DNA of 64,000 nt from Thermodesulfobacteriota bacterium (GTDB taxonomy: Bacteria > Desulfobacterota_D > UBA1144 > Nemesobacterales > CSP1-2), in the NCBI GenBank assembly GCA_036397855.1, contig DASWID010000030.1, positions 1,948 to 65,947 on the forward strand, in the 5' to 3' direction. Shown here one piece after another: positions 1-10,860 of this stretch. Numbering within the stretch: position 1 is the first letter of the stretch; each line of letters starts with the position of its first letter. The notes under the pieces are model-generated. The model ran no database searches, was not told where the DNA came from, and saw nothing but the letters and a program-made list of their open reading frames with translations. The position numbers and the translations under genes were made by a program.

Positions 1-738
1 CCTTATGATGCAAAGGTTTGGCAATCAACTTGGCCGGAACTAATGAAAAATGTTATTGAAGCGTGTAAAACACATCGCGTAAAGTTAGTTTTTTTCGATA
101 ATGTGTATATGTATGACCCAAACTGTGTATCGCATTTAACTGAGGAAACACGGATAAATCCTTTGAGTAAGAAGGGAATGGTTAGAGCTCAGATTGCACA
201 AATGATTTTAGATGAAGTAGAAGCAGGGAATCTGCGGGCTCTGATAGCCAGATCTGCCGATTTTTATGGTCCTGATAATGATAAAAGTGTTTTGGGGGAG
301 ACCGTATTTAAAAACTTAAAAAATGGCAAAAAAGCAAATTGGCTCTGTTCCGTGAATTACAAACATTCTTTCACATTTACACCAGATGCCGGAAAGGCAA
401 CCGCTCTATTAGGTAATTCTGCTGAAGCATACAATCAGGTATGGCATTTACCAACCGCCAAAGCTCCTCTGACAGGTAAAGAATGGATTGCAGCGTTTGC
501 TAAAGAAATGAATTTAAATCCTAAATATCGGGTCGCGGGGAAAAATATGGTCCGATTACTGGGCTTGTTCGATCCATTGATGAAAGAGTTGGTTGAGATG
601 CTTTATCAATATGATCAAGACTACTGTTTTGATAGTAGTAAATTTGAAAGTCACTATGATTTAAGGCCAACACCATATCTTGAAGGTATAAGGCAAATTG
701 TAGAAAAAGAATATGACCAAAAAGACTCCACAAAGTGA
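1..738 (+). CDS. NAD(P)-dependent epimerase/dehydratase (SDR/NmrA-like), C-terminal part; CDS runs off the 5' window edge
   Basis: The frame is open from base 1 (PYDAKVWQSTWPELMKNVIEACK...) and stops at 738. Sequence has the extended-SDR C-terminal character (…ADFYGPDN…). Confidence 0.55.
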   Translation, partial: PYDAKVWQSTWPELMKNVIEACKTHRVKLVFFDNVYMYDPNCVSHLTEETRINPLSKKGMVRAQIAQMILDEVEAGNLRALIARSADFYGPDNDKSVLGETVFKNLKNGKKANWLCSVNYKHSFTFTPDAGKATALLGNSAEAYNQVWHLPTAKAPLTGKEWIAAFAKEMNLNPKYRVAGKNMVRLLGLFDPLMKELVEMLYQYDQDYCFDSSKFESHYDLRPTPYLEGIRQIVEKEYDQKDSTK

Positions 739-1093
739 AATGCATAAAAACAGCGATTGGAGCGCGACGGGAGGCTTTTGGGCGTTTGAAGAAGTTTACG
801 ACAGATGTTACATTCTGATGAGCAAAGGGGACCGATCGGTTTTCGCTGACGAATGCTTTCCACCGTTATCTTCGTAAATGGGGAGCCAGAAATTTCTTTT
901 TAAGCAGTTCCGCATTTCGGAAAGGCTCTGCGCTCACCAGAGGCAATTTCGATTTTCTTTATTGACATGAAATTAGGCTTGTTGTACCATGGAGAATACG
1001 GCGTTTGCAGCCTAATTAGTAGTTAGCAAGCGTTGGCGATACTGCATGCGCGGCGTCAACCGCACGCGTGATATGGTTCACGAGGAGGCTTAG
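739..1093 (+). repeat. Cassette-associated element copy 0 (hairpin/T-run + promoter TTGACA-N17-TACCAT + conserved leader 'tttgcagcctaattagtagttag')
   Basis: Aligns with copies at 1700, 2440, 3340, 4018, 6790 and 7975 ('ctttccaccgtt', 'ttgacatgaaattaggcttgttgta', 'gcagcctaatt'). Confidence 0.6.
963..991 (+). promoter_or_regulatory. Sigma70-like promoter of cassette 0 (TTGACA-17 nt-TACCAT)
   Basis: -35 and -10 hexamers at the same place as in the other element copies, with a 17-nt spacer 'tgaaattaggcttgttg'. Confidence 0.5.
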
Positions 1094-1474
1094 ATGAGTA
1101 AGGCGAAGAACCGCGCTACGATTGAGGCGCTGGTGGCGGCGATCAACGGGAGAGACCACGAGGCGCTCGACAAGGTGTTCACCGAGGATGTAGCGATGGA
1201 GTGGCCTCAGTCCGGTGAGCGGATCAACGGCGGTCAAAACCGACGTGAAATCTACAGCCGCTTTCCGTCGCTCCCCAAGGTCACACCGCGGCGGATAACC
1301 GGCAGTGGCGACGTCTGGGTGCTCGAGGCAAACCTCGACTACGGCGACGGTGAGCCGTACCCGTGCGTGTTCGTCTTCGAGATGCGGGGCGGTTTGATCG
1401 CCAAGGAGGTCGCCTACTGGACGAAGCCTTTCCCGGCACCCGCGTGGCGCGCCCCGTGGGTCGAGCGCATGTAG
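1094..1474 (+). CDS. SnoaL-like / NTF2-fold small protein (ketosteroid-isomerase-like); high-GC cassette ORF
   Basis: 126 aa with RBS 'gaggagg' upstream. ~63% GC against a ~40% host. SnoaL-like features (…DKVFTEDVAMEWPQSG… EVAYW…). Confidence 0.55.
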   Translation: MSKAKNRATIEALVAAINGRDHEALDKVFTEDVAMEWPQSGERINGGQNRREIYSRFPSLPKVTPRRITGSGDVWVLEANLDYGDGEPYPCVFVFEMRGGLIAKEVAYWTKPFPAPAWRAPWVERM

Positions 1475-1699
1475 AACCCGTACCGACGCCCCCTTACTTG
1501 CTTTTAGAGTGGCTGACAGTTTTTGGAGTAGTTAAATTACCGTCCGTCCTGAGCAGGGTCGAACGGCGTAATGGTTAATAATCTATAGGAAAGGATGCAT
1601 CCCTTGACCGAGCCTGGGATGGGTGTATTCATATCCGCCGTAGAAAATAGTCTGCTTAAATACAATTGGTATAACCCCTCATCCATGCGAACTAGCACT

Positions 1700-1952
1700 T
1701 TTTGGTGCCATTGAGTAGTGCTTGCGTCCTATGGTCTCACGAACCTGATCGAGAAGTTCCTTTCTGGGTGATTTTCGATTTCCTCATCTTGACCTGAAAT
1801 CAGGTTTCTTGTATTCTGAGTACTAATTAGATTAAGCGGTGATTTGCGGTATAACATCCGCCTTCTCGATGTTATCCTGGATTTCTCGAGGCTGAATATT
1901 AGTTAGCATGACCGGCATTATCTTTATTTACTGAGATTGTAAGGAGGAGACA
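1700..1952 (+). repeat. Cassette-associated element copy A
   Basis: Conserved 'tcctcatcttgacctgaaatcaggtttcttgtattct … gatttgcggtataacatcc … cctggatttctcgaggctgaatattagttag'. Confidence 0.65.
1789..1817 (+). promoter_or_regulatory. Sigma70-like promoter TTGACC-N17-TATTCT (cassette A)
   Basis: TTGACC at 1789-1794 and TATTCT at 1812-1817 with a 17-nt spacer. Confidence 0.55.
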
Positions 1953-2432
1953 ATGAATACATCACATCGAATAATAGCAGTAATCGTGGCAGTTGGGATG
2001 GGCTTGATGGCTTGGTTCCTTGCGCAGGCGCAGGAGGGCGGGCATATTTTGCTTAACTCGGCTGATATAAAGTGGGCTGACGCGCCGCCATCGATGTCAC
2101 CGGGCGCACAGATCGCTGTGATTGAAGGGGATTTGAAAAAAGCTGAGCCCTTCGCGTTCCGCCTTAAACTCCCCGCTAATTACAAGATTCCACCACACAC
2201 CCATCCGGCTATAGAACACGTGACCGTTCTCTCCGGAACTTTCTACATGGGGGCTGGAGATCAACTCGATCAGGAGAAAGCCATAGCTTTGACACCCGGC
2301 AGTTTCGCAGCGTTTCAACCGGGGCACAGTATGTTTGCCTGGACTGAGGAAGAAACTGTAATCCAGGTGCATGGGGTTGGTCCGTGGGGGATCGATTACA
2401 TTAGCCCGGCGGACGATCCGAGAAAGAAATAA
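1953..2432 (+). CDS. Cupin-domain protein with N-terminal signal peptide or membrane anchor
   Basis: 159 aa with RBS 'aggagga'. Hydrophobic N-terminus. Cupin motifs (HTHPAIEHVTVLSGTFYMG … HGVGPWG). Confidence 0.6.
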   Translation: MNTSHRIIAVIVAVGMGLMAWFLAQAQEGGHILLNSADIKWADAPPSMSPGAQIAVIEGDLKKAEPFAFRLKLPANYKIPPHTHPAIEHVTVLSGTFYMGAGDQLDQEKAIALTPGSFAAFQPGHSMFAWTEEETVIQVHGVGPWGIDYISPADDPRKK

Positions 2433-2439
2433 CCAGAAG

Positions 2440-2681
2440 AAAAAGGGTAAGGCACCCCTTTTTCGTTGAAGATTGATGTCCACGAGTAGCTTCACCGTTG
2501 GAGAGGCAGAAGTTTCTTTTTGGGGCTGTTTTCGTTCTCCTCTTCTTGACCTGAAATTATGTCATTTATATACTGTGGGTAATCATTGGGATAAGCAATC
2601 ATTTGCAGTAAATATTACTTTTGGTAAATATAGTGCATTATTACTGATTAATTAATAGTTAGGAGCTAGAGAAACTTTTAA
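2440..2681 (+). repeat. Cassette-associated element copy B
   Basis: 'cacccctttttcgttgaagattgatgtccacgagtagcttcaccgttgga … tcctcttcttgacctgaaat'. Confidence 0.65.
2546..2574 (+). promoter_or_regulatory. Sigma70-like promoter TTGACC-N17-TATACT (cassette B)
   Basis: Same position within the element as in the other copies. Confidence 0.5.
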
Positions 2682-3182
2682 ATGGAAGGTCTAATAACAT
2701 TCGTGGTTGGAGTTGCTGTTGGCATCTTGGGGTACTCCATCACCATGAAAGTCAGTTTTAAGCAACGCACGATAGACTACAAAATACGCGTGTATGATGT
2801 CCTGATAGGCAAGTGGGTCCAAATGCGGAACCACATTTATGCTCACCACCCAGGAAACTCATCTGATAATGTCTCGTCACAGGTGATCTACCAGTTTGAT
2901 CAAATGTATGGAGAATCACAGCAGCTCATAGGTGAAGCGATACTTGTGTGCGAAGATGCTGTACTGACGAACGATATAAATGAATTAAACGAGCGAATGT
3001 ATAGAACTAAATGGCACAATCTTCCTTTGGAGCAACTGAATGAGGCTATGGAGTCGATAAAGAAGGATGCCATTTCAATTGTCTCGAGGATGAGAGAAGA
3101 CATAAAAGAAAGTACAAGATTGGAGCTGCGCGACTTCGCACATATCGCGTCTGGGTTTTGGCATAAACGGCACGATAGTTAA
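2682..3182 (+). CDS. Hypothetical protein with N-terminal transmembrane helix
   Basis: 166 aa, ORF starts directly after the element. N-terminus 'GLITFVVGVAVGILGYSI'. No recognisable domain. Confidence 0.4.
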   Translation: MEGLITFVVGVAVGILGYSITMKVSFKQRTIDYKIRVYDVLIGKWVQMRNHIYAHHPGNSSDNVSSQVIYQFDQMYGESQQLIGEAILVCEDAVLTNDINELNERMYRTKWHNLPLEQLNEAMESIKKDAISIVSRMREDIKESTRLELRDFAHIASGFWHKRHDS

Positions 3183-3339
3183 GATAAAAACGTCATTTGA
3201 AGTTCACGCCCGAGGTACCCCGAAAATGCTGGAGTTGATTGCTGACTAACTAGATGAGATAAATGTTTTGATCAAAGTAGGTAGAAAGATCGCGACAAAA
3301 TTGAACAACCCATCTACTCGACACGGTCGTCACTACTCA

Positions 3340-3522
3340 GAAGGAAGTGCCGCTTTGGGTGGTTTTTCCATCTCCTCTTCTGGAACTGAAAATAAGTTCT
3401 TTGTATTCTAAGAGCTAATTTGATTGGGCGACGATTTGCGGTATAACTTCCCTGTTTGGATATTATTCTGCATTTTTGCAGGCTAATTATTAAATGTGTC
3501 AATTGAATAAGGAGAGATTTGA
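3340..3522 (+). repeat. Cassette-associated element copy C (degenerate -35)
   Basis: 'tctcctcttctggaactgaaaataagttctttgtattctaagagctaatttgattgggcgacgatttgcggtataacttcc … ctgcatttttgcaggctaatt'. Confidence 0.6.
3381..3409 (+). promoter_or_regulatory. Promoter-like region (TGGAAC-N17-TATTCT), weak -35
   Basis: Position is homologous to the promoter of the other copies. Confidence 0.35.
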
Positions 3523-3831
3523 ATGTTAGAGCTGCGACCTACTTGTGAGCATTGCAATAAGAACTTACCACCGGTTTCTACTGAAGCAATGATTTGCAGC
3601 TATGAATGTACTTTTTGCAAAGACTGCGTTGATGAAGTTTTAGAAGATGTGTGTCCAAATTGTGGTGGCGGTTTTTGTCCAAGGCCAATAAGGCCGAGTA
3701 ATAATCTGAAAGATGATAATTACCTGGGCAAAGACCCGGCTTCCACAAAAGTTAGACATAAGCCGGTGAACATAGAAGTCCATCGTGAATTTTCCCAGAG
3801 CATTAAGAATGTGCCGCCACACGAGCGTTAA
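3523..3831 (+). CDS. DUF1272-like cysteine-rich zinc-ribbon protein
   Basis: 102 aa, 'LELRPTCEHCNKNLPP…EAMICSYECTFCKDC…CPNCGGGFCPRPIRP', matching my memory of the DUF1272 signature. RBS 'aaggagag'. Confidence 0.55.
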   Translation: MLELRPTCEHCNKNLPPVSTEAMICSYECTFCKDCVDEVLEDVCPNCGGGFCPRPIRPSNNLKDDNYLGKDPASTKVRHKPVNIEVHREFSQSIKNVPPHER

Positions 3832-4017
3832 ACACATAACAATCGGCTGCCCGCAGACTCGATTAGCTCGACGCCGTGTCGGCCACTTGCTCGGCTGTCC
3901 CGTGAATTGTCGCGACATCTCCCTGGTTCCGTCTTAGCACGAGTTCTGCAGCGAGCCGTCCGGTCTCCGCCGCCGCATTCATGAACCCGCGCGAAAAGGT
4001 CGATGGGATTGGGTGAA

Positions 4018-4345
4018 ATGAAATGCACCCCTTTTTCGTTGAAGATTACTTTGCACGAGTAACTTCACCGTTGGATGGGCAGATAATTTCCTAAATTGGT
4101 GAATTTCTATTTCCTCTCCTTGACCTGAAATTAGGCTTGTTGTATCCTGACTACTAGTACATTTAAGCAATGATTTGCAGTATAACATCCTTTTTGCATG
4201 TTGTGCTTGGTCTTTGCTTGCTAATTATAATTAGGATTCTAGGATCTTCTACATGGCAATCATCGCATGCCTGGGGTGGGGTTCTCTTGTATGAGATCCC
4301 CAAGGGCTCCCGGTTCATCGTCAGTGGTTTGCTGATGGCCCGTTT
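4018..4345 (+). repeat. Cassette-associated element copy D
   Basis: 'cacccctttttcgttgaagattactttgcacgagtaacttcaccgttgga … ttgacctgaaattaggcttgttgtatcct … gatttgcagtataacatcc'. Confidence 0.65.
4120..4148 (+). promoter_or_regulatory. Sigma70-like promoter TTGACC-N17-TATCCT (cassette D)
   Basis: 17-nt spacer 'tgaaattaggcttgttg', identical to the copy-0 spacer. Confidence 0.5.
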
Positions 4346-4819
4346 GTGAAGGTGGAATTTGTGCGCCAGTCAGACGACGGCCGAATTACGCTGGTTCTGG
4401 ACGATGTTGCTTCACCGGTGCGCTCGCTTTGGGCAGTGATGGATGATTCCGATCTGGGAGCCGCTCGAGAAGCACTTCGCAAGCGTGAACGAATTCCCGG
4501 TAACAACTCGACGCATATCGGGTCATGGTCTCAGGGAGATAACGCCCCTGAGTTGATTCTTGATCTTCCCGAATGGGTGGCATCACGTGGAGTGCGGTCG
4601 GTCATATGGTCTGCTTTACCGTCAAAATTTGAAGGTAAGAACGGACAAACCCCAACGTGTGAGCAAGTGCTTCGATATCTCAGCGGGCTGACTGGAGCAC
4701 TCCGTGATGCAGCCGAGCGCTACGTTAGCTTGGCGCCTCGCCAAATTGACACGCTGTACCGGCGTCGAATAGAAGCAGTACTTCAATGGACACCGCAGGG
4801 TCCAAACTTTGGGTCATGA
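4346..4819 (+). CDS. Hypothetical protein (GC-rich cassette ORF)
   Basis: 157 aa, ~57% GC, no recognisable family. The start may be GTG. Confidence 0.4.
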   Translation: MKVEFVRQSDDGRITLVLDDVASPVRSLWAVMDDSDLGAAREALRKRERIPGNNSTHIGSWSQGDNAPELILDLPEWVASRGVRSVIWSALPSKFEGKNGQTPTCEQVLRYLSGLTGALRDAAERYVSLAPRQIDTLYRRRIEAVLQWTPQGPNFGS

Positions 4820-5105
4820 TGCGGTTGTGGCTCTATTAATTAGTTAACGCATCGGTTAAGTTACTCGTTAGATCACGTAGATCGGTATGAAGTTTACGAT
4901 AAGGTCTTTAATGGTGGATTTTTGGTTTACAATCAATCCCACCATTTTACAAAGCCTAATATTTCAAGGGTTCATCCTAATTTTCTTCCTTGAGTTTGAA
5001 TCCATCGGTAAAATGAATTAACAGGTTTTTAAGCTTATTAATATCAAGCGATATAGATCACTTAAACGGAAACTGGTAAAGCACTGTATAGGAGATGTTG
5101 GATCC

Positions 5106-6728
5106 TTACTCGAACTTTAAACCCCAGAAGTCCTTGAACCTTTCATCAAGAAAACGGTTTCTTAATTTGCTGCCCTTAATTTTTTGAACGACAGATAAGA
5201 ATCCTTCGCTTGAATTGTTCTTTAGGGTGGAGAAAACATCCTCTAATTCAATCTTATCGATCATCTCATCAAACAGTTCCAATTCTTCAATATTTATAAG
5301 AAGTATATGAAAATCTTTCAAACCGTTAAGATGTTTATCTCTCTCTACATTTTCAAGCGCGTCTTTTATCCATGATTCATACAACGAACTAGATACGAAT
5401 GGCATGTCCATAAAAACTATACAGGGAAATACCTTTTTGTTTTTGAATTGGCTAAACTCATTATAATATTTCGGAATATCTTCTACCCTTTTGAAAATCT
5501 GCTCTATCGCATCTACAATTTTTTTGATCTCTCCTTTCACTATAAGTTCTTTATCGCCGGTCTGTCTACTTAGTAAAGCAAACTGGTTAGCCTTTGCCTC
5601 AAATAGATAGATTTTGTCTCCTCTTTCGACCCACCAGTCAACAAATTTACCTTTAGGATAATCTAACTCTGGGTGAACATTCTGCTCTCCATAGATTCCC
5701 TTTAAGATAACCCCTACATATTCTTGAAAGACATACCCGAAATAGTTTCTAAATTCTTGTTGTTGAGCTTTATCTTCAAAATAGCGATGAAATAACCAAT
5801 AAATCCCCCCAAAAGCTTTTCTAACATACGCAGACGCATTTGGCACAACAAACGGATCACCACGATGCTTTGCATCGGTTTCTATAATTGGATAAACCAA
5901 TAACGGATTAAACCTCGTCTTTGTAAAAATTGGATTCAGGTTTGCATTAAAGCGGACATCTTCGCTTTTGAAACTTTTGTAATCCGCTTTTAATATATTG
6001 AGGAAGTTATTAATTTTTTCTTCGATCAGGACATCCTTTAATTGAGGTATGTCGGCCTTAGTGAACATTGGGATGCTGAAAGTCGCTGTTCTCTTGGAGC
6101 CAGCAGCCACTGCCGTAGCGATTAGGAGATAATCGTTTATTCTTAAGCTTGTTTCCATTTCGAAAATAAGGGATAAATTTTCGAATTTCCCAGGAAGTAT
6201 TTTTTTGACCAAGTCATTAAAGATAACAAACGTTCTTGCCATCATATAAATGGGTAAGAATTGGTATTCCATTTGCTCGAAGTGAAGTCGTATCATCAAA
6301 GATCGGACCTTATCTTCGTTAGTGATTTCATAGGTTTCGGTATGCTCTGGTTGTGTGAGTGAGTTATTATAGATATTGCATAAAGCAAGCCAATTATCTT
6401 TTTCGTGTATATATTTTGATTTGTGATCATTGGCTCCAGAAATAAGCAAAAGATTCGCCAAGTAGGCCAAGGCAAATTGGCTTATTATTATCCCCGTGTT
6501 TTGTTCTCTATGAGCAGCGATGCCAATGTTATTTGGGTCCCCGCTATTGAATATGTAAATAGAAGCTTTGCCCAGAGTAATGATTCCGCCTCGCAGATTA
6601 TATCTCCTTAAAACAGTCTTCAGTTCTTCTTCAGACACTGAGCCCTCCGGTCTATTACCAAGTTCAGCAATATCGCTATCACAAGGTATTGTTATTATTT
6701 CTGGGATCATAGTGTGATTTTTCATCAA
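5106..6728 (-). CDS. Large hypothetical protein (540 aa) with a possible C-terminal PD-(D/E)xK-like nuclease motif; opposite orientation inside the cassette array
   Basis: Long AT-rich ORF (~36% GC). Segment '…FVDWWVERGDKIYLFEAKANQF…' has a D…E-A-K arrangement compatible with a restriction-endonuclease-like fold. No other recognisable domains. Confidence 0.5.
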   Translation of the reverse strand: MMKNHTMIPEIITIPCDSDIAELGNRPEGSVSEEELKTVLRRYNLRGGIITLGKASIYIFNSGDPNNIGIAAHREQNTGIIISQFALAYLANLLLISGANDHKSKYIHEKDNWLALCNIYNNSLTQPEHTETYEITNEDKVRSLMIRLHFEQMEYQFLPIYMMARTFVIFNDLVKKILPGKFENLSLIFEMETSLRINDYLLIATAVAAGSKRTATFSIPMFTKADIPQLKDVLIEEKINNFLNILKADYKSFKSEDVRFNANLNPIFTKTRFNPLLVYPIIETDAKHRGDPFVVPNASAYVRKAFGGIYWLFHRYFEDKAQQQEFRNYFGYVFQEYVGVILKGIYGEQNVHPELDYPKGKFVDWWVERGDKIYLFEAKANQFALLSRQTGDKELIVKGEIKKIVDAIEQIFKRVEDIPKYYNEFSQFKNKKVFPCIVFMDMPFVSSSLYESWIKDALENVERDKHLNGLKDFHILLINIEELELFDEMIDKIELEDVFSTLKNNSSEGFLSVVQKIKGSKLRNRFLDERFKDFWGLKFE

Positions 6729-6789
6729 ACCGTATTTCTAAGTTATTTTTTGTGAGTCTTTCTATATTTTACTCAATATATAAAGAAAG

Positions 6790-6952
6790 ACGGAAAAAGA
6801 ACGCATCACTTTTTCGTCGAAGAATGCCTTCACTGGTAGCTTCGCCATTCGAGAGGCAGAAGTGTCTTTGGTGTGTTTTCCATTTCTTCTTCTTGACCTG
6901 AAAATAGGTTTTCAGTATTCTAGGTGCAGTATTAGATGCGAGGATTATCCTG
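6790..6952 (+). repeat. Cassette-associated element copy E (short leader)
   Basis: 'catcactttttcgtcgaagaatgccttcactggtagcttcgccattcgagagg … ttcttcttgacctgaaaataggttttcagtattct'. Confidence 0.65.
6892..6920 (+). promoter_or_regulatory. Sigma70-like promoter TTGACC-N17-TATTCT (cassette E)
   Basis: Exact hexamers with a 17-nt spacer. Confidence 0.55.
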
Positions 6953-7891
6953 ATGCTAAAAGGAGCTTCAGAAAACGAAACATGGCCGAGTCTCCCTTTA
7001 GATGAGTGGAAAGAGACGTGTGCCACGCTGCACATGTGGTTCCAGATGGTCGGGAAGATTCGGCTGGCCCAGAGTCCTTGGGTTAACCATTCTTGGAACG
7101 TCACCCTCTACGTGACCGCCCGTGGCCTCACTACTTCCCCCATTCCCTATGGAACGAGGACCTTTCAGATTGATTTCGATTTTACTGATCACAAGCTATT
7201 AATTCAGTCCAGCGACGGTAGAGCTGGCTCCATTCTCCTTCGACCCTGCTCCGTCGCGGCGTTTTATAGGAAGCTCATGGAAGAGCTGAATAAGCTCGAT
7301 TTGCATCTCAAGATCAACACGAAACCAAACGAAATGCCGGACCCGATTCCCTTCGACCAGGATGAGGTGCATGCTTCGTATGATCCCGACTACGCCAACC
7401 GCTTTTGGCAGGTGCTCTTACAGTCCGATCGGGTCTTCAAACAGTTTCGAGGCCATTTCATCGGCAAGTGCAGCCCCGTCCATTTCTTCTGGGGTGCCCT
7501 CGATCTTGCTGTAACGCGGTTCTCCGGACGACCGGCACCAGAGCATCCCGGGGGAATACCCCATCTTCCCGACGCCGTAACCCGAGAGGCGTATTCACAT
7601 GAGGTCAGCAGTTGCGGATTCTGGCCAGGGGGTGGCGCGATATCATATCCTGCCTTCTACTCATACGCTTACCCGGAGCCTCACGGCTTCGCCGAAGCCG
7701 CTGTCAAACCCGGCATCGCTTTCTACAGCAGTGACTTTCGTGAATTTCTGCTTCCGTATGATGCAGTTAGAACATCCGAGTCACCCGACGACACGCTTCT
7801 TGAGTTTCTGCAGACTACGTATGACGCCGCGGCCAATTTGGGAGGCTGGGATCGTAAATCCCTGGAGCGTAGCGATACCTTGCAAGGCTAG
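6953..7891 (+). CDS. Hypothetical protein (312 aa, GC-rich cassette ORF; possibly DUF5996-like)
   Basis: ~57% GC. 'WPSLPLDEWKETCATLHMWFQMVGKIRLAQSPWVNHSWNVTLYVTARG'. The family assignment is from memory only. Confidence 0.45.
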   Translation: MLKGASENETWPSLPLDEWKETCATLHMWFQMVGKIRLAQSPWVNHSWNVTLYVTARGLTTSPIPYGTRTFQIDFDFTDHKLLIQSSDGRAGSILLRPCSVAAFYRKLMEELNKLDLHLKINTKPNEMPDPIPFDQDEVHASYDPDYANRFWQVLLQSDRVFKQFRGHFIGKCSPVHFFWGALDLAVTRFSGRPAPEHPGGIPHLPDAVTREAYSHEVSSCGFWPGGGAISYPAFYSYAYPEPHGFAEAAVKPGIAFYSSDFREFLLPYDAVRTSESPDDTLLEFLQTTYDAAANLGGWDRKSLERSDTLQG

Positions 7892-7974
7892 ACCTAATCT
7901 AAGGCGCTAAAATACATTTAGGGTTAAGCATTTAGTTCCTATTTATCGCATCGACGCTATCAGGAAAGGAGGTG

Positions 7975-8233
7975 CACTCCCTTTTTCGTTGAAGATTACT
8001 TCCCACGAGTAGCTTCGCGGACAGCACAATAAGTTTCCTTTTTGGGAGTCACAGTGGCTTAATACAGGTGGTTTTCCATTTCCTCTTCTTGACCTGAAAT
8101 CAGGATTTTTGTATTCTAGTTTTTAGTCAGATTAGGCAATGATTTGCAGAATAGCATCTCGTTTTGGTTATTATCCTGCATTTTTGCTGTCTAATTCGTA
8201 GTTATAGGGATTGAGAAGAAATGCAGGGATGAC
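7975..8233 (+). repeat. Cassette-associated element copy F
   Basis: 'cactccctttttcgttgaagattacttcccacgagtagcttcgcgg … ttgacctgaaatcaggatttttgtattct … gatttgcagaatagcatct … cctgcatttttgctgtctaatt'. Confidence 0.65.
8089..8117 (+). promoter_or_regulatory. Sigma70-like promoter TTGACC-N17-TATTCT (cassette F)
   Basis: Exact hexamers with a 17-nt spacer. Confidence 0.55.
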
Positions 8234-8824
8234 ATGAGTGTAACAGAATATTTGCTTATCGATTTTGAAAATGTTCGGCCTGATGGAATCCCTGCGATTC
8301 ATGAAAATCAAAACGTGTTTATTTTCGCGGGAGATAACCAGAATAAAATTGATTATGACCTGGTTAGAGCGACCCAGCCCTACGGAAATCGGGTTCAATG
8401 GATCAAAATTAAGGGAAGTGGGAGAAATGCCCTTGATTTTCATATTTCCTTTTATCTTGGGAAGTTATCTGCTATTCATAAGCAAGCATCGTTTTTCATA
8501 TTATCCAAAGATAAAGGTTTTGATCCGCTCATGAGGTATTTGGAAAAATCCGGAATACAATGTAAGAGAATAACTCAATTACAGGATTTTATAACAGGCA
8601 AGAAGGAGGTGGATGATGACAGTATATTTGCAAAGATACTTAGGATGCTGCTTAAGATTGATCTGACAAGAAGGCCAAAAAGAATTCGAACATTGAAGGC
8701 ATTTATCGGATCAAGGAATAAAATGGATAGTGTTAAAGTCGATAAAATTATAAAAAGATTGGCCGACGAGGAAATAATCATTTTGAATGAAGAAAAAGTG
8801 TCTTATCCGGCCGGACAAAAATGA
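8234..8824 (+). CDS. NYN/PIN-like (LabA-like) domain protein
   Basis: 196 aa. Motifs 'YLLIDFENVRP', 'SGRNALDFHI' and 'ILSKDKGFDPL' resemble NYN catalytic-core positions. Confidence 0.5.
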   Translation: MSVTEYLLIDFENVRPDGIPAIHENQNVFIFAGDNQNKIDYDLVRATQPYGNRVQWIKIKGSGRNALDFHISFYLGKLSAIHKQASFFILSKDKGFDPLMRYLEKSGIQCKRITQLQDFITGKKEVDDDSIFAKILRMLLKIDLTRRPKRIRTLKAFIGSRNKMDSVKVDKIIKRLADEEIIILNEEKVSYPAGQK

Positions 8825-8928
8825 AACCGTATAACAACCGAATCGAACTGGCAAAATTTTGCTCGTCACGTTGCTTGCTTACGCAAACGCCGCGCCGACC
8901 AGCTCGAAAAGTAAAGGTGTGAGGCCTT
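8821..8928 (+). CDS. Possible 35-aa Cys-containing peptide translationally coupled (ATGA) to the NYN-like gene
   Basis: ATG overlaps the stop of 8234-8824. Peptide MKPYNNRIELAKFCSSRCLLTQTPRRPARKVKV. Not in the ORF track because it is under 60 aa. Coordinates approximate. Confidence 0.2.
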
Positions 8929-8984
8929 GGCATGAGATTTAATTCCTTCGATAAGCTTACATAACTTCTTATCTCTTTTCGTCT

Positions 8985-9062
8985 CCTATTCTAGTCTGAA
9001 AAATAGAAAAGGGGCCACAAGCCTTTTTCGATTAAGAATGCGTTCCACGGGTAGCTTAGCCG
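8985..9062 (+). repeat. Degenerate remnant of the cassette-associated element (copy G); the promoter part is eroded
   Basis: 'ggggccacaagcctttttcgattaagaatgcgttccacgggtagcttagccgcttgagag' aligns with the 5' part of the element. Upstream, 'tctcctattctagtctgaaaaatag' is a decayed promoter part. Confidence 0.45.
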
Positions 9063-9340
9063 CTTGAGAAAAAAAGGTCGGGCTTTGTTTATTTGATTAT
9101 TTGTTAATCCAGCTCATTTGTAATATCTTTTATCTCTTTTTGCAGTCCATCATCTAACAACAGTTTCTGAGAAAATACGGACAGATACTCAATATTCCTA
9201 ATCCGCACTTCGACGAAGCTCAGTGTGAACGGTTTTTATATAAAAAAAGAAAAAGAAAATAGTGACAGCTGCCCCTTTTTCTTAACCAATGTTAGATATG
9301 AAGTGTGTTTTTTAAATTGTGATATATACTAATATATACT

Positions 9341-9805
9341 GTGTTCATTTATCGGGTGATTGAAGCACTTGAGAAAAGAAAAGTAGATTACGCTATTGCT
9401 GGTGGATATGCAGTAGCGCTCCATGGAGCAGTAAGAGGAACTGTTGATATTGACATTGTTTTACGATTTACGAAAAAGAATCTTCTTGCGGCAGAGGCTG
9501 CTCTTAGGGACGTAGGGTTGCAGTCACGTCTTCCGGTAAAAGGAGATGAGGTTTTTGATTTTCGGGAGGAATACATAAAAAATAGAAACCTTTTGGCATG
9601 GAATTTTATTAATATTTCTAATCCGACTGAATCTGTTGATATCATACTCACCGATGATTTGAGAAATTTGAAAACAAAAATAATACGCTCAGGTGAAAAG
9701 ACACTACGGGTAATTTCAATCGATGACCTAATTAAGATGAAAGCGAAGAGTAATAGAGGACAAGACTTAGAGGATATTAAAGCCTTAAGGAGTTTGAAGA
9801 AATGA
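9341..9805 (+). CDS. Minimal Pol-beta-superfamily nucleotidyltransferase (MNT-like)
   Basis: 154 aa, GTG start. 'IAGGYAVALHGAVRGTVDIDIVL' is the hG[GS]x9-13Dh[DE]h NTase motif. Confidence 0.6.
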   Translation: MFIYRVIEALEKRKVDYAIAGGYAVALHGAVRGTVDIDIVLRFTKKNLLAAEAALRDVGLQSRLPVKGDEVFDFREEYIKNRNLLAWNFINISNPTESVDIILTDDLRNLKTKIIRSGEKTLRVISIDDLIKMKAKSNRGQDLEDIKALRSLKK

Positions 9806-10047
9806 AATCAGTACAATTTTTTTCAAAAGAATATTTGGAAAGGTGTGCTTCAATGAAACCAGAACAGATCCTTCAATTTCTGGAAGATTTTAGAACCCTT
9901 CATTCTGAATCAAAAACACAAAAAACCCGTCTTATCAGCATCAAGATCCCCGAAGATTTACTTAATGCTTTCAAAGCCAAAGCAAAAGTTAATGGGATTC
10001 CATATCAAACCCAGATCAAAAGGCTGATGGCGGAATGGATGAGATAG
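9802..10047 (+). CDS. BrnA-like ribbon-helix-helix (CopG-family) antitoxin-type protein
   Basis: 81 aa, overlaps the upstream NTase gene by 4 nt. C-terminus 'RLISIKIPEDLLNAFKAKAKVNGIPYQTQIKRLMAEWM' matches the BrnA/RHH pattern (…RLD.D.L.WFKA…GYQTRIN..LR.Y…). Confidence 0.6.
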   Translation: MKSVQFFSKEYLERCASMKPEQILQFLEDFRTLHSESKTQKTRLISIKIPEDLLNAFKAKAKVNGIPYQTQIKRLMAEWMR

Positions 10048-10120: not shown

Positions 10121-10498
10121 ATGAACCAGGTAGTATTTCACATGATCGGCAATTTTTTCGATTCCGAATCAAGAAACCTGCCAACAGCAAAGATCAAAAA
10201 TCTTTCAGAATTAAAAAGATCTCTGCGCATAACTCGCCAATACAATGTTGTTTTATTAGATGACAACGATCACACCTATGAATATGTAATCGAAATGTTG
10301 GTAGAAATTTTTGGGCATAGCAAGGCCCGAGCTTTTGAGATGGCCTGCACAGTAGATCTAATGGGAAGGGTCGTGGTTTTTACATCGACAAAAAAGTCTG
10401 CAGAGGAGAAACGAATTCAAATCCTCTCTTATGGTCCTGATTGGAGGCTTTCCAGGAGTAATGGATCGATGAAAGCAATAATCGAACCCGCAGAATAA
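10121..10498 (+). CDS. clpS: ATP-dependent Clp protease adaptor ClpS
   Basis: 125 aa. 'YNVVLLDDNDHTYEYVIEMLVEIFGHSKARAFEMACTVDLMGRVVVFTSTKKSAEEKRIQIL' matches the ClpS core. Confidence 0.75.
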   Translation: MNQVVFHMIGNFFDSESRNLPTAKIKNLSELKRSLRITRQYNVVLLDDNDHTYEYVIEMLVEIFGHSKARAFEMACTVDLMGRVVVFTSTKKSAEEKRIQILSYGPDWRLSRSNGSMKAIIEPAE

Positions 10499-10519
10499 CA
10501 TATTTGAAAATACCAACCG

Positions 10520-10860
10520 ATACTTATGATTTTTTATCCGCACTTCGACTGGGCCCTTCGACTCAGGACAGGCTCAGTGTGAACGGGTTTTTTGTGCTGA
10601 TGGGAGCCTAAAGGCTTGCTCTACATGGTAATGATACTTTGCGTAGCGGAGGGCTTTAGGCCTCCATTCTTTACAAGTGATGCAGCGTGTGAATTTATCA
10701 GACCCAATAGCCCTTATGTTGTATCCATTGGAATATAAAGAATTCCGCTACAGGAATTCATTGTGTCACGAGCAACACTCGTGACCTACCCGATGGGGAA
10801 TAAATAACAAAATAATCGGGTTTTTTTCTACAGGAAACGAAAACTTAGATAGGACTGGCT
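10520..10860. repeat. Cluster of REP/BIME-like dispersed palindromic repeats in a convergent intergenic region
   Basis: Contains 'ccgcacttcgactgggcccttcgactcaggacaggctcagtgtgaacgg', 'gcctaaaggcttgc…gcggagggctttaggcctcc' and 'gtcacgagcaacactcgtgacctaccc'. All recur elsewhere (9196, 13800-13925, 14155, 15700-15960, 30990, 55085-55205). Confidence 0.6.

Follow-up and report, generated by a model that had tools for sequence, protein, structure and literature searches.

A probable hypervariable island of expression modules, with cargo of mixed base composition, beside the rRNA operon of a Candidatus Dadabacteria genome

A complete integron comprises the gene of a tyrosine recombinase (intI), an adjacent attI site and a promoter (Pc), together with cassettes that are mostly promoterless, and the attC sites, found at the 3' end of the open reading frame (ORF) of each cassette, are imperfect palindromes of 57-141 nucleotides (nt) with R'' (RYYYAAC) and R' (GTTRRRY) motifs. 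In SAR11, the hypervariable region HVR2 is reportedly a strain-variable island between the 23S and 5S ribosomal RNA (rRNA) genes, for which, to our knowledge, no repeated promoter-leader/terminator junction element is known. Here we describe an array that recalls both systems, located between positions ~820 and 9075 of a stretch of 64,000 nt (the window, that is, the whole of the DNA analysed) of contig DASWID010000030.1, assembly GCA_036397855.1. The host is an uncultured soil or groundwater bacterium of the class Candidatus Dadabacteria, which NCBI places within the Thermodesulfobacteriota, and is known from metagenomes alone.

The closest described system is found in viruses. Cassettes delimited by promoter-early stem-loop (PeSL) elements have been reported in the hyperplastic regions of T4-like phages (Arbiol et al. 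2010, PMC2839356; Comeau et al. 2014, PMC4122927), and homologous recombination between these regulatory repeats has been proposed to shuffle the modules (PMC2839356, PMC4122927). As in the phages, a terminator stem-loop and a strong sigma-70-type promoter, here a match at the level of sequence, separate small, unrelated and often orphan genes, and in both systems the insertions, deletions and replacements that distinguish close relatives are bounded by the repeats. However, the Dadabacteria element is chromosomal and stands beside an rRNA operon, not in a phage genome; its unit is much longer (~240 nt) and adds a ~90-nt hairpin-forming leader, a cluster of stops in three frames and a box after the terminator. 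For the PeSL elements, recombination between neighbouring repeats is described as forming mini-circles. In viral contigs, no match to the box pattern was found, and the two matches to the leader pattern received no support from the leader or box profiles.

Other systems share single aspects of the array. Like sedentary integrons and clusters of attC sites lacking integron integrases (CALIN), it holds short, unrelated and often foreign genes on the same strand, with toxin-antitoxin and small-enzyme cargo, at a fixed chromosomal site whose content varies between relatives; unlike them, it lacks attC sites, no intI or attI has been seen, each gene has a promoter in place of a common Pc, and the repeat goes with the following gene, on its 5' side. 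With HVR2 it shares a strain-variable island at a conserved position beside the rRNA genes, the organisms being unrelated. The defence hotspots of P2 and P4 (PMC9122126) also combine variable cargo, a fixed locus and conserved flanks, and the GapS1-like, PIN7, TIR-like, OLD/AAA_15-like and PD-(D/E)XK proteins found here are defence-like; in contrast, much of the Dadabacteria cargo (SnoaL, cupin, DUF1272, DUF5996, hydrolase, methyltransferase) is not, the repeated regulatory junction is absent from hotspots of that type, and the island has no mobile-element backbone. In halovirus HF2 (PMC8707807), short conserved intergenic repeats likewise supply promoters for successive genes, but these repeats, of 29-58 bp and in an archaeal virus, have neither the terminator, box and leader architecture nor the variable foreign cargo.

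The explanation that we favour, with a probability of about 0.58, is that self-contained expression modules, whose regulatory ends double as recombination substrates, make up a hypervariable island at ~820-9075. The island lies in the chromosome, between the rRNA operon and a conserved nucleotidyltransferase-CopG-ClpS flank. Each module would be made up of an AT-rich promoter, a ~90-nt leader able to form a hairpin and ending in CTAATTAGTAGTTAGG, a cargo gene preceded by a ribosome-binding site that belongs to it, and a terminator-like hairpin with a conserved box (D4) behind it. The module can be considered autonomous because the leader supplies a complete promoter and 5' untranslated region (UTR), and its counterpart, a terminator box, closes the preceding gene at its 3' end. 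The cargo includes small enzymes and many defence-type proteins, and several cargo ORFs would have been acquired by horizontal transfer from bacteria of higher G+C content (GC) as little more than the ORF itself; such near-bare arrival would make their expression dependent on the resident promoter and leader. Modules would be gained, lost and replaced among lineages, most likely as the ~240-nt junction repeats undergo ordinary homologous recombination, also with DNA of related strains, and new foreign ORFs would occasionally enter by illegitimate recombination within an existing module. The parts of the array and its right flank are the following (loci other than the window are cited by their L numbers).

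824..890, + strand: weak first D4-like 3' box, before the first module (nhmmer, D4 profile, 23 bits)
944..1020, + strand: leader A; promoter TTGACA-17-TACCAT at 962-990; centre deleted, 3' end TTTGCAGCCTAATTAGTAGTTAGC retained
1094..1474, + strand: cargo 1, SnoaL_2/NTF2-like protein, 126 aa (Pfam, 4e-11)
1680..1756, + strand: diverged 3' box closing the SnoaL module; aligns with the D4 copies (alignment A1)
1757..1900, + strand: leader B, full length (128 bits); promoter TTGACC-17-TATTCT at 1789-1817
1953..2432, + strand: cargo 2, cupin/DUF4437-like protein, 159 aa; 52.5 % GC
2439..2512, + strand: terminator-like hairpin GAAAAAGGG..CCCTTTTTC and 3' box CGTTGAAGATT..CCACGAGTAGCTTC, D4 copy C
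2514..2660, + strand: leader C, degenerate; promoter TTGACC-17-TATACT at 2546-2574
2682..3182, + strand: cargo 3, 166 aa, no family match; 43 % GC
3349..3492, + strand: leader D (126 bits); -35 box degenerate (TGGAAC)
3523..3831, + strand: cargo 4, DUF1272 protein, 102 aa (Pfam, 2.6e-28); 43 % GC
3832..4010, no strand: non-coding block of 60 % GC, probable cargo remnant, with a fragmentary ORF on the - strand at 3863-3982
4011..4086, + strand: terminator-like hairpin and 3' box, D4 copy E
4088..4229, + strand: leader E; promoter TTGACC-17-TATCCT at 4120-4148
4253..4819, + strand: cargo 5, 188-codon gene of an uncharacterised family of ~186 aa; 54.7 % GC
5106..6728, - strand: distant GapS1-like protein, 540 aa (NCBIfam NF047931, 2.5e-19, below the curated cut-off); 36 % GC
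6789..6862, + strand: hairpin and 3' box, D4 copy F
6861..6927, + strand: leader F, cut ~10 nt after the -10 box; promoter at 6893-6921
6953..7891, + strand: cargo 6, DUF5996 protein, 312 aa (Pfam, 8e-146); 54 % GC
7961..8035, + strand: terminator-like hairpin and 3' box, D4 copy G
8057..8200, + strand: leader G; promoter at 8089-8117; accompanies the PIN7 gene in L027 and L045
8234..8824, + strand: cargo 7, PIN7-domain protein, 196 aa (Pfam, 1.8e-31); 36 % GC
9004..9075, + strand: last terminator hairpin and 3' box, D4 copy H, end of the array
9341..10047, + strand: right flank, pair formed by a DUF6036 nucleotidyltransferase and a CopG-like antitoxin; syntenic in L027, L044, L065 and L071

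The junction repeat, ~240 nt long, is present in 7-8 copies, all on the + strand, and nhmmer searches of the 64 kb with leader and box profiles derived from its own copies gave matches only at 824-9074. From 5' to 3' it consists of a terminator-like hairpin, the conserved box, a semi-conserved spacer of ~30 nt, the promoter and the ~90-nt leader. The hairpin is enclosed between an A-run and a T-run, as in GAAAAAGGG-TAAGGCAC-CCCTTTTTC at 2439-2464, and equivalent structures are found at ~4011-4037, ~6793-6816, ~7964-7988 and ~9006-9029; the box is defined by CGTTGAAGATT..CCACGAGTAGCTTC. The sigma-70-type promoter has the consensus TTGACC-17-TATTCT, and its six copies (starting at 962, 1789, 2546, 4120, 6893 and 8089) are all on the + strand and keep the 17-nt spacing. 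It is followed by the leader, with consensus GAGTACTAATTAGATTAAGCAATGATTTGCAGTATAACATCCCTTTTTGGATATTATGCTGCATTTTTGCAGGCTAATTAGTAGTTAGG, and over dozens of copies from several species the unit of promoter, leader, three-frame stop and terminator has a mean column identity of ~70 % (alignment A3). Downstream of the leader the copies diverge completely, and a Shine-Dalgarno sequence and an ORF follow. Thus, the conserved leader claimed in a preliminary description of this DNA is real, although the element is larger than was thought, being a complete promoter and 5' UTR paired with the terminator box of the preceding gene. The functions of promoter, terminator and RNA hairpin are predicted from the conservation of these sequences.

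Two further details of the repeat have to be mentioned. The 3' end of the leader, CTAATTAGTAGTTAGG, contains stops in all three forward frames within its last 15 nt (~1885-1900, 3477-3492 and 8185-8200), an arrangement that would serve as a translational insulator before the ribosome-binding site of the cargo. In addition, several copies carry, between the -35 and -10 boxes, the 6-bp inverted repeat ACCTGA-AA-TCAGGT (1791-1806, 8091-8106); it is degenerate elsewhere and has the form expected for a repressor operator overlapping the promoter. A candidate leader peptide of 19 codons (ATG ATT TGC...TAG) was discarded, since its ATG is present in about half of the copies and indels in the loop break the frame; inspection of the alignment also revealed no Shine-Dalgarno sequence for it. 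A likeness of the leader to the promoter region of the rRNA operon was checked in L042, where no match to the leader profile was found near the 16S start.

Folding of the leader consensus gives a single hairpin, long and imperfect (-32.2 kcal/mol, z -5.6). A structure drawn by hand, with helices P1 and P2, is paired in 81.5 % of the cells of 27 copies, compared with 29-46 % when the partners are slid. Among the cells that are not Watson-Crick, G-U (86) exceeds A-C (41, of which 21 come from a single systematic pair), and this excess argues for the transcript (the sense strand) as the molecule that folds. No Rfam 15 family was found over the array at gathering thresholds, and a permissive search of 700-9400 (E up to 5) gave nothing relevant.

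The repeat is not restricted to this genome. An exact scan of GTDB genomes and JGI metagenomes for the promoter motif, with subsequent profile searches, gave a family of ~45 leaders and ~30 boxes in ~25 loci from metagenomes or metagenome-assembled genomes (MAGs), and those loci that have a name belong to Candidatus Dadabacteria or Thermodesulfobacteriota MAGs. Wherever the left flank was recovered, the array comes after the 23S rRNA gene. The A-type promoter of leader A is also present in L027 and L062, and the box at 1680..1756 is conserved in L027, L045, L062 and L065. Besides the genes listed above, the family carries a TIR-like protein, an OLD/AAA_15-type ATPase, PD-(D/E)XK and Hjc-like nucleases, an alpha/beta hydrolase, a methyltransferase, an extracytoplasmic-function (ECF) sigma factor and DUF899. 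Sibling species retain both flanks and differ by whole modules, and the order of the shared modules is colinear in all the relatives, with no conflict:

Window: rRNA operon, unannotated ORF (181-199 aa), epimerase, SnoaL, cupin, 166-aa protein, DUF1272, 188-codon gene, GapS1-like (reverse), DUF5996, PIN7, nucleotidyltransferase
L071, L072, L065: rRNA operon, SnoaL, DUF5996, PIN7, alpha/beta hydrolase, nucleotidyltransferase
L027: rRNA operon, SnoaL remnant (11 codons), PIN7, alpha/beta hydrolase
L030: rRNA operon, 81-aa ORF, GapS1-like (reverse), PD-(D/E)XK nuclease, further genes
L044: 348-aa ORF, PD-(D/E)XK nuclease, nucleotidyltransferase
L040: rRNA operon, further genes, bactofilin (reverse), cupin, further genes

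Comparison of the window with L071, L065, L027, L045, L040 and L030 places the breakpoints in the junction repeat. In L040, the cupin gene and its own leader occur in a different context, and homology to the window begins ~20 nt before the -35 box and includes the ORF together with its terminator and box. The terminator hairpin and box are ~95 % identical up to ..GTAGCTTC, after which homology falls to the level that is general for the repeat. Similarly, the leader of PIN7 is module-specific from the -10 box onwards in the window, L027 and L045 despite a different upstream neighbour, and the box downstream of the gene remains linked to the module in L027 and L045 up to ..CCACGGGTAGC, beyond which the sequences diverge. 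Taking into account that the leader accompanies the ORF downstream of it, and that the terminator and box accompany the ORF upstream, the module must be defined as leader, ORF, terminator and box. Modules abut within a short spacer, and deletion variants have hybrid leaders at their junctions. On the other side of the leader, the point of fusion varies: the leader of DUF5996 is cut partway in L065 and further cut in the window, and that of SnoaL is internally deleted, so foreign DNA joins the leader at no single fixed nucleotide, which speaks against one exact site of capture.

A 301-aa cargo protein of L030 and L044 was initially considered an ortholog of DUF5996; Pfam identifies it as a PD-(D/E)XK nuclease, and thus position F of the window carries a different gene. 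A further observation concerns L062 (GCA_016187835.1, labelled Deltaproteobacteria), which is more distantly related. In its segment 3400-5700 the same SnoaL gene, together with its 3' flank, is accompanied by a glyoxalase gene and the A-type promoter. This part of an array adjoins carB/greA, with no rRNA operon, and its leaders are strongly diverged; it follows that the array, or part of it, can occupy another locus.

The base composition of the cargo was evaluated against 38 core ORFs at 10-64 kb, using GC, GC at third codon positions (GC3) and a codon adaptation index (CAI) referenced to the window. These reference ORFs have a GC of 0.410 ± 0.031 (range 0.333-0.488) and a GC3 of 0.387 ± 0.036 (n=38), and four cargo genes are GC outliers. 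The SnoaL-like gene (1094-1474) is the most extreme, with GC 0.638 (z +7.4), GC3 0.827 (z +12.3) and a CAI z of -10.6, followed by ORF 4346-4819 (GC 0.544, z +4.3; 54.7 % over the full gene 4253-4819), DUF5996 (6953-7891; GC 0.540, z +4.2; GC3 0.601, z +6.0) and the cupin gene (1953-2432; z +3.7). The compositional mosaicism proposed in the preliminary description was therefore borne out for the three ORFs that it had flagged, all of them significant outliers; the ~57-63 % GC that it ascribed to them holds for SnoaL (63.8 %) and is too high for the other two (54 %). Its view that 1953-2432 is AT-rich like the host has to be abandoned in the light of the measured 52.5 %, while genes 2682-3182, 5106-6728 and 8234-8824 are indeed host-like (43, 36 and 36 % GC), and the leaders of the window are AT-rich (30-40 % GC), as it had stated. 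Across 38 distinct leader-ORF pairs of the family, leader GC is narrow (34 ± 2.6 %) and cargo GC broad (32-64 %), half of the cargo ORFs exceeding 48 % GC; mosaicism is thus a property of the whole family.

Sliding-window GC likewise reveals distinct GC-rich blocks, defined as 80-nt windows with GC of at least 49 %, at ~981-1530, 1961-2460, 3781-4040, 4231-4830 and 6961-7910. In general they open right after a leader and close at the terminator and box. The SnoaL block is untidy, beginning within the truncated leader A and stopping ~55 nt beyond the ORF. The block at 3781-4040 (~60 % GC) has no intact gene and lies between the stop of DUF1272 and the following terminator and box; it includes a protein-like ORF fragment, MNAAAETGRLAAELVLRRNQGD..., on the - strand at 3863-3982, and is probably the orphan remnant of a former GC-rich cargo gene.

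With respect to donors, for which taxonomy relies on the taxon names attached to a few protein-database matches, the SnoaL protein has hundreds of homologs with 76-95 % identity. Its gene is native in composition in a Gemmatimonadales MAG (69 % GC in a locus of 71 %; 82 % DNA identity) and in a second genome of 66.5 % GC (67 %; 78 % DNA identity), and DNA homology to both high-GC genomes spans exactly the ORF and nothing beyond, consistent with capture of the ORF alone by an expression element already present. In the loci of Dadabacteria this gene has 59-64 % GC within flanks of 45-48 %, as against 67-69 % in the high-GC genomes, and is partly ameliorated; since it occupies the same position in several related species, its acquisition is old. 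Homologs of DUF5996 with 73-78 % identity exist in many taxa, one of them native in a genome of 55 % GC. Together, these data support a horizontal origin of SnoaL and DUF5996 from higher-GC lineages, from which hardly anything beyond the coding sequence would have been captured.

The cargo genes are mutually unrelated, which agrees with the earlier argument against simple duplication. The idea that foreign ORFs became fused to a resident leader of host type also stands, in that several cargo genes are foreign, a conserved AT-rich element precedes them and the homology of SnoaL is confined to its ORF. The capture of promoterless cassettes can be retained in part: entry of a bare ORF fits SnoaL, but each unit, as it now exists, is an autonomous expression module with its own promoter.

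Several observations weigh against an island shaped by homologous recombination between regulatory repeats. Counts of promoter-like and terminator-like sequences over the whole region do not exceed those of shuffled sequence, and therefore the argument for promoters and terminators rests on their conservation across copies. Folding of the leader copies of the window itself is poor (z -0.5 to -2.4), the leader shows weak covariation (the observed score was reached by 12 of 500 shuffles, and double changes affect 7 pairs against 5.8 expected), and RNAalifold, applied to 27 leaders, gave two tiny helices in place of the long hairpin, so that the palindrome could act at the level of DNA. In many independent copies, leader conservation stops abruptly right after GTTAGG, which matches the R' motif of integrons, and module ends fall within one short spacer; this common end and single spacer would be equally expected of a site-specific system. 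Moreover, homologous recombination explains the loss and exchange of modules, not the first landing of a bare ORF between leader and box. It is conceivable, if unlikely, that the ~240-nt junction is the site of a recombinase encoded elsewhere, from which modules excise as circles to be re-inserted at other junctions. The unrelated and often foreign short genes on one strand, separated by a repeat that contains an imperfect palindrome, the anchoring of the array at one chromosomal locus across species, and a cargo similar to that of chromosomal integrons (toxin-antitoxin-like, defence, SnoaL, cupin and glyoxalase neighbours) would all suit such a platform. A more specific version, in which box, spacer and leader ending in GTTAGG form the site of an undescribed integron-like system of Candidatus Dadabacteria, anchored at the end of the rRNA operon, with the recombinase elsewhere and each captured gene arriving or becoming equipped with a standard promoter, leader, three-frame stop and terminator, seems to us about as unlikely. 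Against both stand the colinear order of shared modules, none of which appears at conflicting positions, the identity of the array in all samples of the population, the variable fusion points of foreign DNA within the leader, and the fact that the -35 and -10 boxes, as well as the distance between them, are strictly conserved, which suggests selection for transcription and not for recombination. No recombinase adjoins any array examined, except an IS256-type transposase in L048, and none was found among 40 ORFs of the window or the neighbouring genes of relatives, where a weak Hjc-like nuclease is cargo in L034; this search spanned ~64 kb of the genome and the short contigs of relatives, and a recombinase encoded elsewhere is possible.

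A classical integron or CALIN, with promoterless attC cassettes inserted by IntI behind a common promoter, is rejected as very improbable, and with it the framing of these genes as integron cassettes. It would account for the small, unrelated, same-strand ORFs of typical cassette type with a repeat between them, and one RYYYAAC...GTTRRRY palindrome does lie just past the array, at 9152-9297. However, this is the sole pair of R'' and R' motifs spaced 50-150 nt apart in the 64 kb, none being found in the array, and it belongs to a small repetitive unit that is also present at 10506-10590; an inverted-repeat scan of all junctions revealed no long palindromes of attC type at the 3' ends of ORFs; a separate promoter is present in each unit; and in the cupin and PIN7 modules the repeat accompanies the downstream and not the upstream ORF. 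Nor was any tyrosine recombinase found among the tested ORFs of the window or of the 10 kb upstream, the scan for the Phage_integrase type having covered 40 window ORFs and left out ~18 housekeeping-sized ORFs at 20-64 kb. It is also rather doubtful that the array is only a co-regulated gene set without special mobility, in which the repeat would be a cis-regulatory unit spread in front of resident genes and the GC differences would reflect independent transfers into a permissive locus. The inverted repeat between the -35 and -10 boxes, an AUUUUUG after the leader hairpin that resembles an attenuator, and the stability of the array within the population speak for it; if attenuation occurs, short transcripts of ~75 nt ending at CUGCAUUUUUG would be produced. 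The lack of an Rfam family even at permissive E-values, the unrelated functions of the cargo, unlike those of a riboswitch regulon, the limitation of the repeat to one locus in 64 kb, always in tandem, and the differences between relatives by whole repeat-bounded modules speak against it. Being a statement about the function of the repeat, co-regulation is compatible with the recombining island as the best explanation of how the array changes. Finally, a chimeric assembly that joined fragments of high-GC and low-GC organisms might be suspected, given that the organism is uncultured and the window is represented by metagenome assemblies only. This possibility is practically negligible: the identical order of genes and repeats was assembled independently, with different pipelines, from at least 8 samples (ENA, JGI, Logan) on contigs of up to 106 kb, which already contradicts it and excludes chimerism, the repeats delimit the GC-rich blocks, and orthologous modules are found again in other species.

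A GC mosaic alone is ordinary evidence of horizontal transfer, and the interest of this locus resides in how foreign genes are packaged: the genes turn over, but the unit that separates them is conserved in dozens of copies from several species of an uncultured lineage. Should the repeats serve both as expression signals and as recombination substrates, they would be a bacterial counterpart of the phage PeSL elements, and would offer an integrase-free way to an integron-like outcome, with plug-and-play expression of acquired ORFs, including those of mismatched AT/GC composition that lack usable native promoters. In that case, the leader profile would be a lineage-specific marker for mining accessory and defence genes of Dadabacteria in metagenomes. 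For a phylum-level group without genetic tools, the analysis also yields a conserved promoter, probably a strong one, with its 5' UTR.

Two cargo genes need a separate comment. ORF 4346-4819, of 157 aa, is the downstream part of the 188-codon gene 4253-4819, whose translation from the ATG at 4253 aligns end to end, with 71 % identity, to homologs of 185-188 aa. An in-frame TGA at 4292-4294 stands at a position where the homologs have Trp (GWGSLV*DP versus GWGSLVWDP), and this is either a nonsense-mutated cargo gene or a gene that re-initiates at 4346 or 4361; gene callers give a shortened product of 152 aa on every contig of the population. The product of 5106-6728 resembles the GapS1 family below threshold (69 bits against a cut-off of 320) and has no Pfam or PADLOC match; its ortholog in L030 adjoins the 23S rRNA gene, and it may be an uncharacterised defence gene. 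PADLOC assigned none of the cargo to a defence system, giving only a marginal match for PIN7.

The context of the array is chromosomal (rRNA operon, ClpS, DapB, SecDF and others). An rRNA operon with the order 16S-tRNA-tRNA-23S lies just upstream of the window (L015 2178-7369, same genome), and no 5S rRNA gene was found within 2.7 kb past the 23S gene or in the window; the variable array takes the usual place of the 5S gene, recalling HVR2 of SAR11. Genes called in the 10 kb upstream are an Asn synthase, a glycosyltransferase, the rRNA operon and an epimerase, and between the 23S gene and the array there is an unannotated ORF (199 aa in the ORF listing, called as 181 aa), followed by the epimerase gene. 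The ORF and epimerase stand in place of an ORF of ~81 aa without Pfam match, missing from the lineage of the window, which directly follows the 23S gene in L030 (4441-4686, - strand) and L040 and is also near the array in L034, L035 and L044. On the right, ClpS (10121-10498) and then housekeeping genes follow the nucleotidyltransferase/CopG pair. This pair is intact in the window, L044, L065 and L071; in L027 (2792-3300, - strand) and L060, the 5' half of the nucleotidyltransferase gene has given way to an alpha/beta-hydrolase module that has a truncated leader of its own.

Small units resembling repetitive extragenic palindromes or miniature inverted-repeat transposable elements (..TCCGCACTTCGAC..GCTCAGTGTGAACGG..) are found at 9152-9297, 10506-10590 and 1541-1575, the first of them being a 146-nt imperfect palindrome with the ends ATCTAAC...GTTAGAT. 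In L027, L044, L051 and L058, such units often lie exactly between the 3' box and the next leader.

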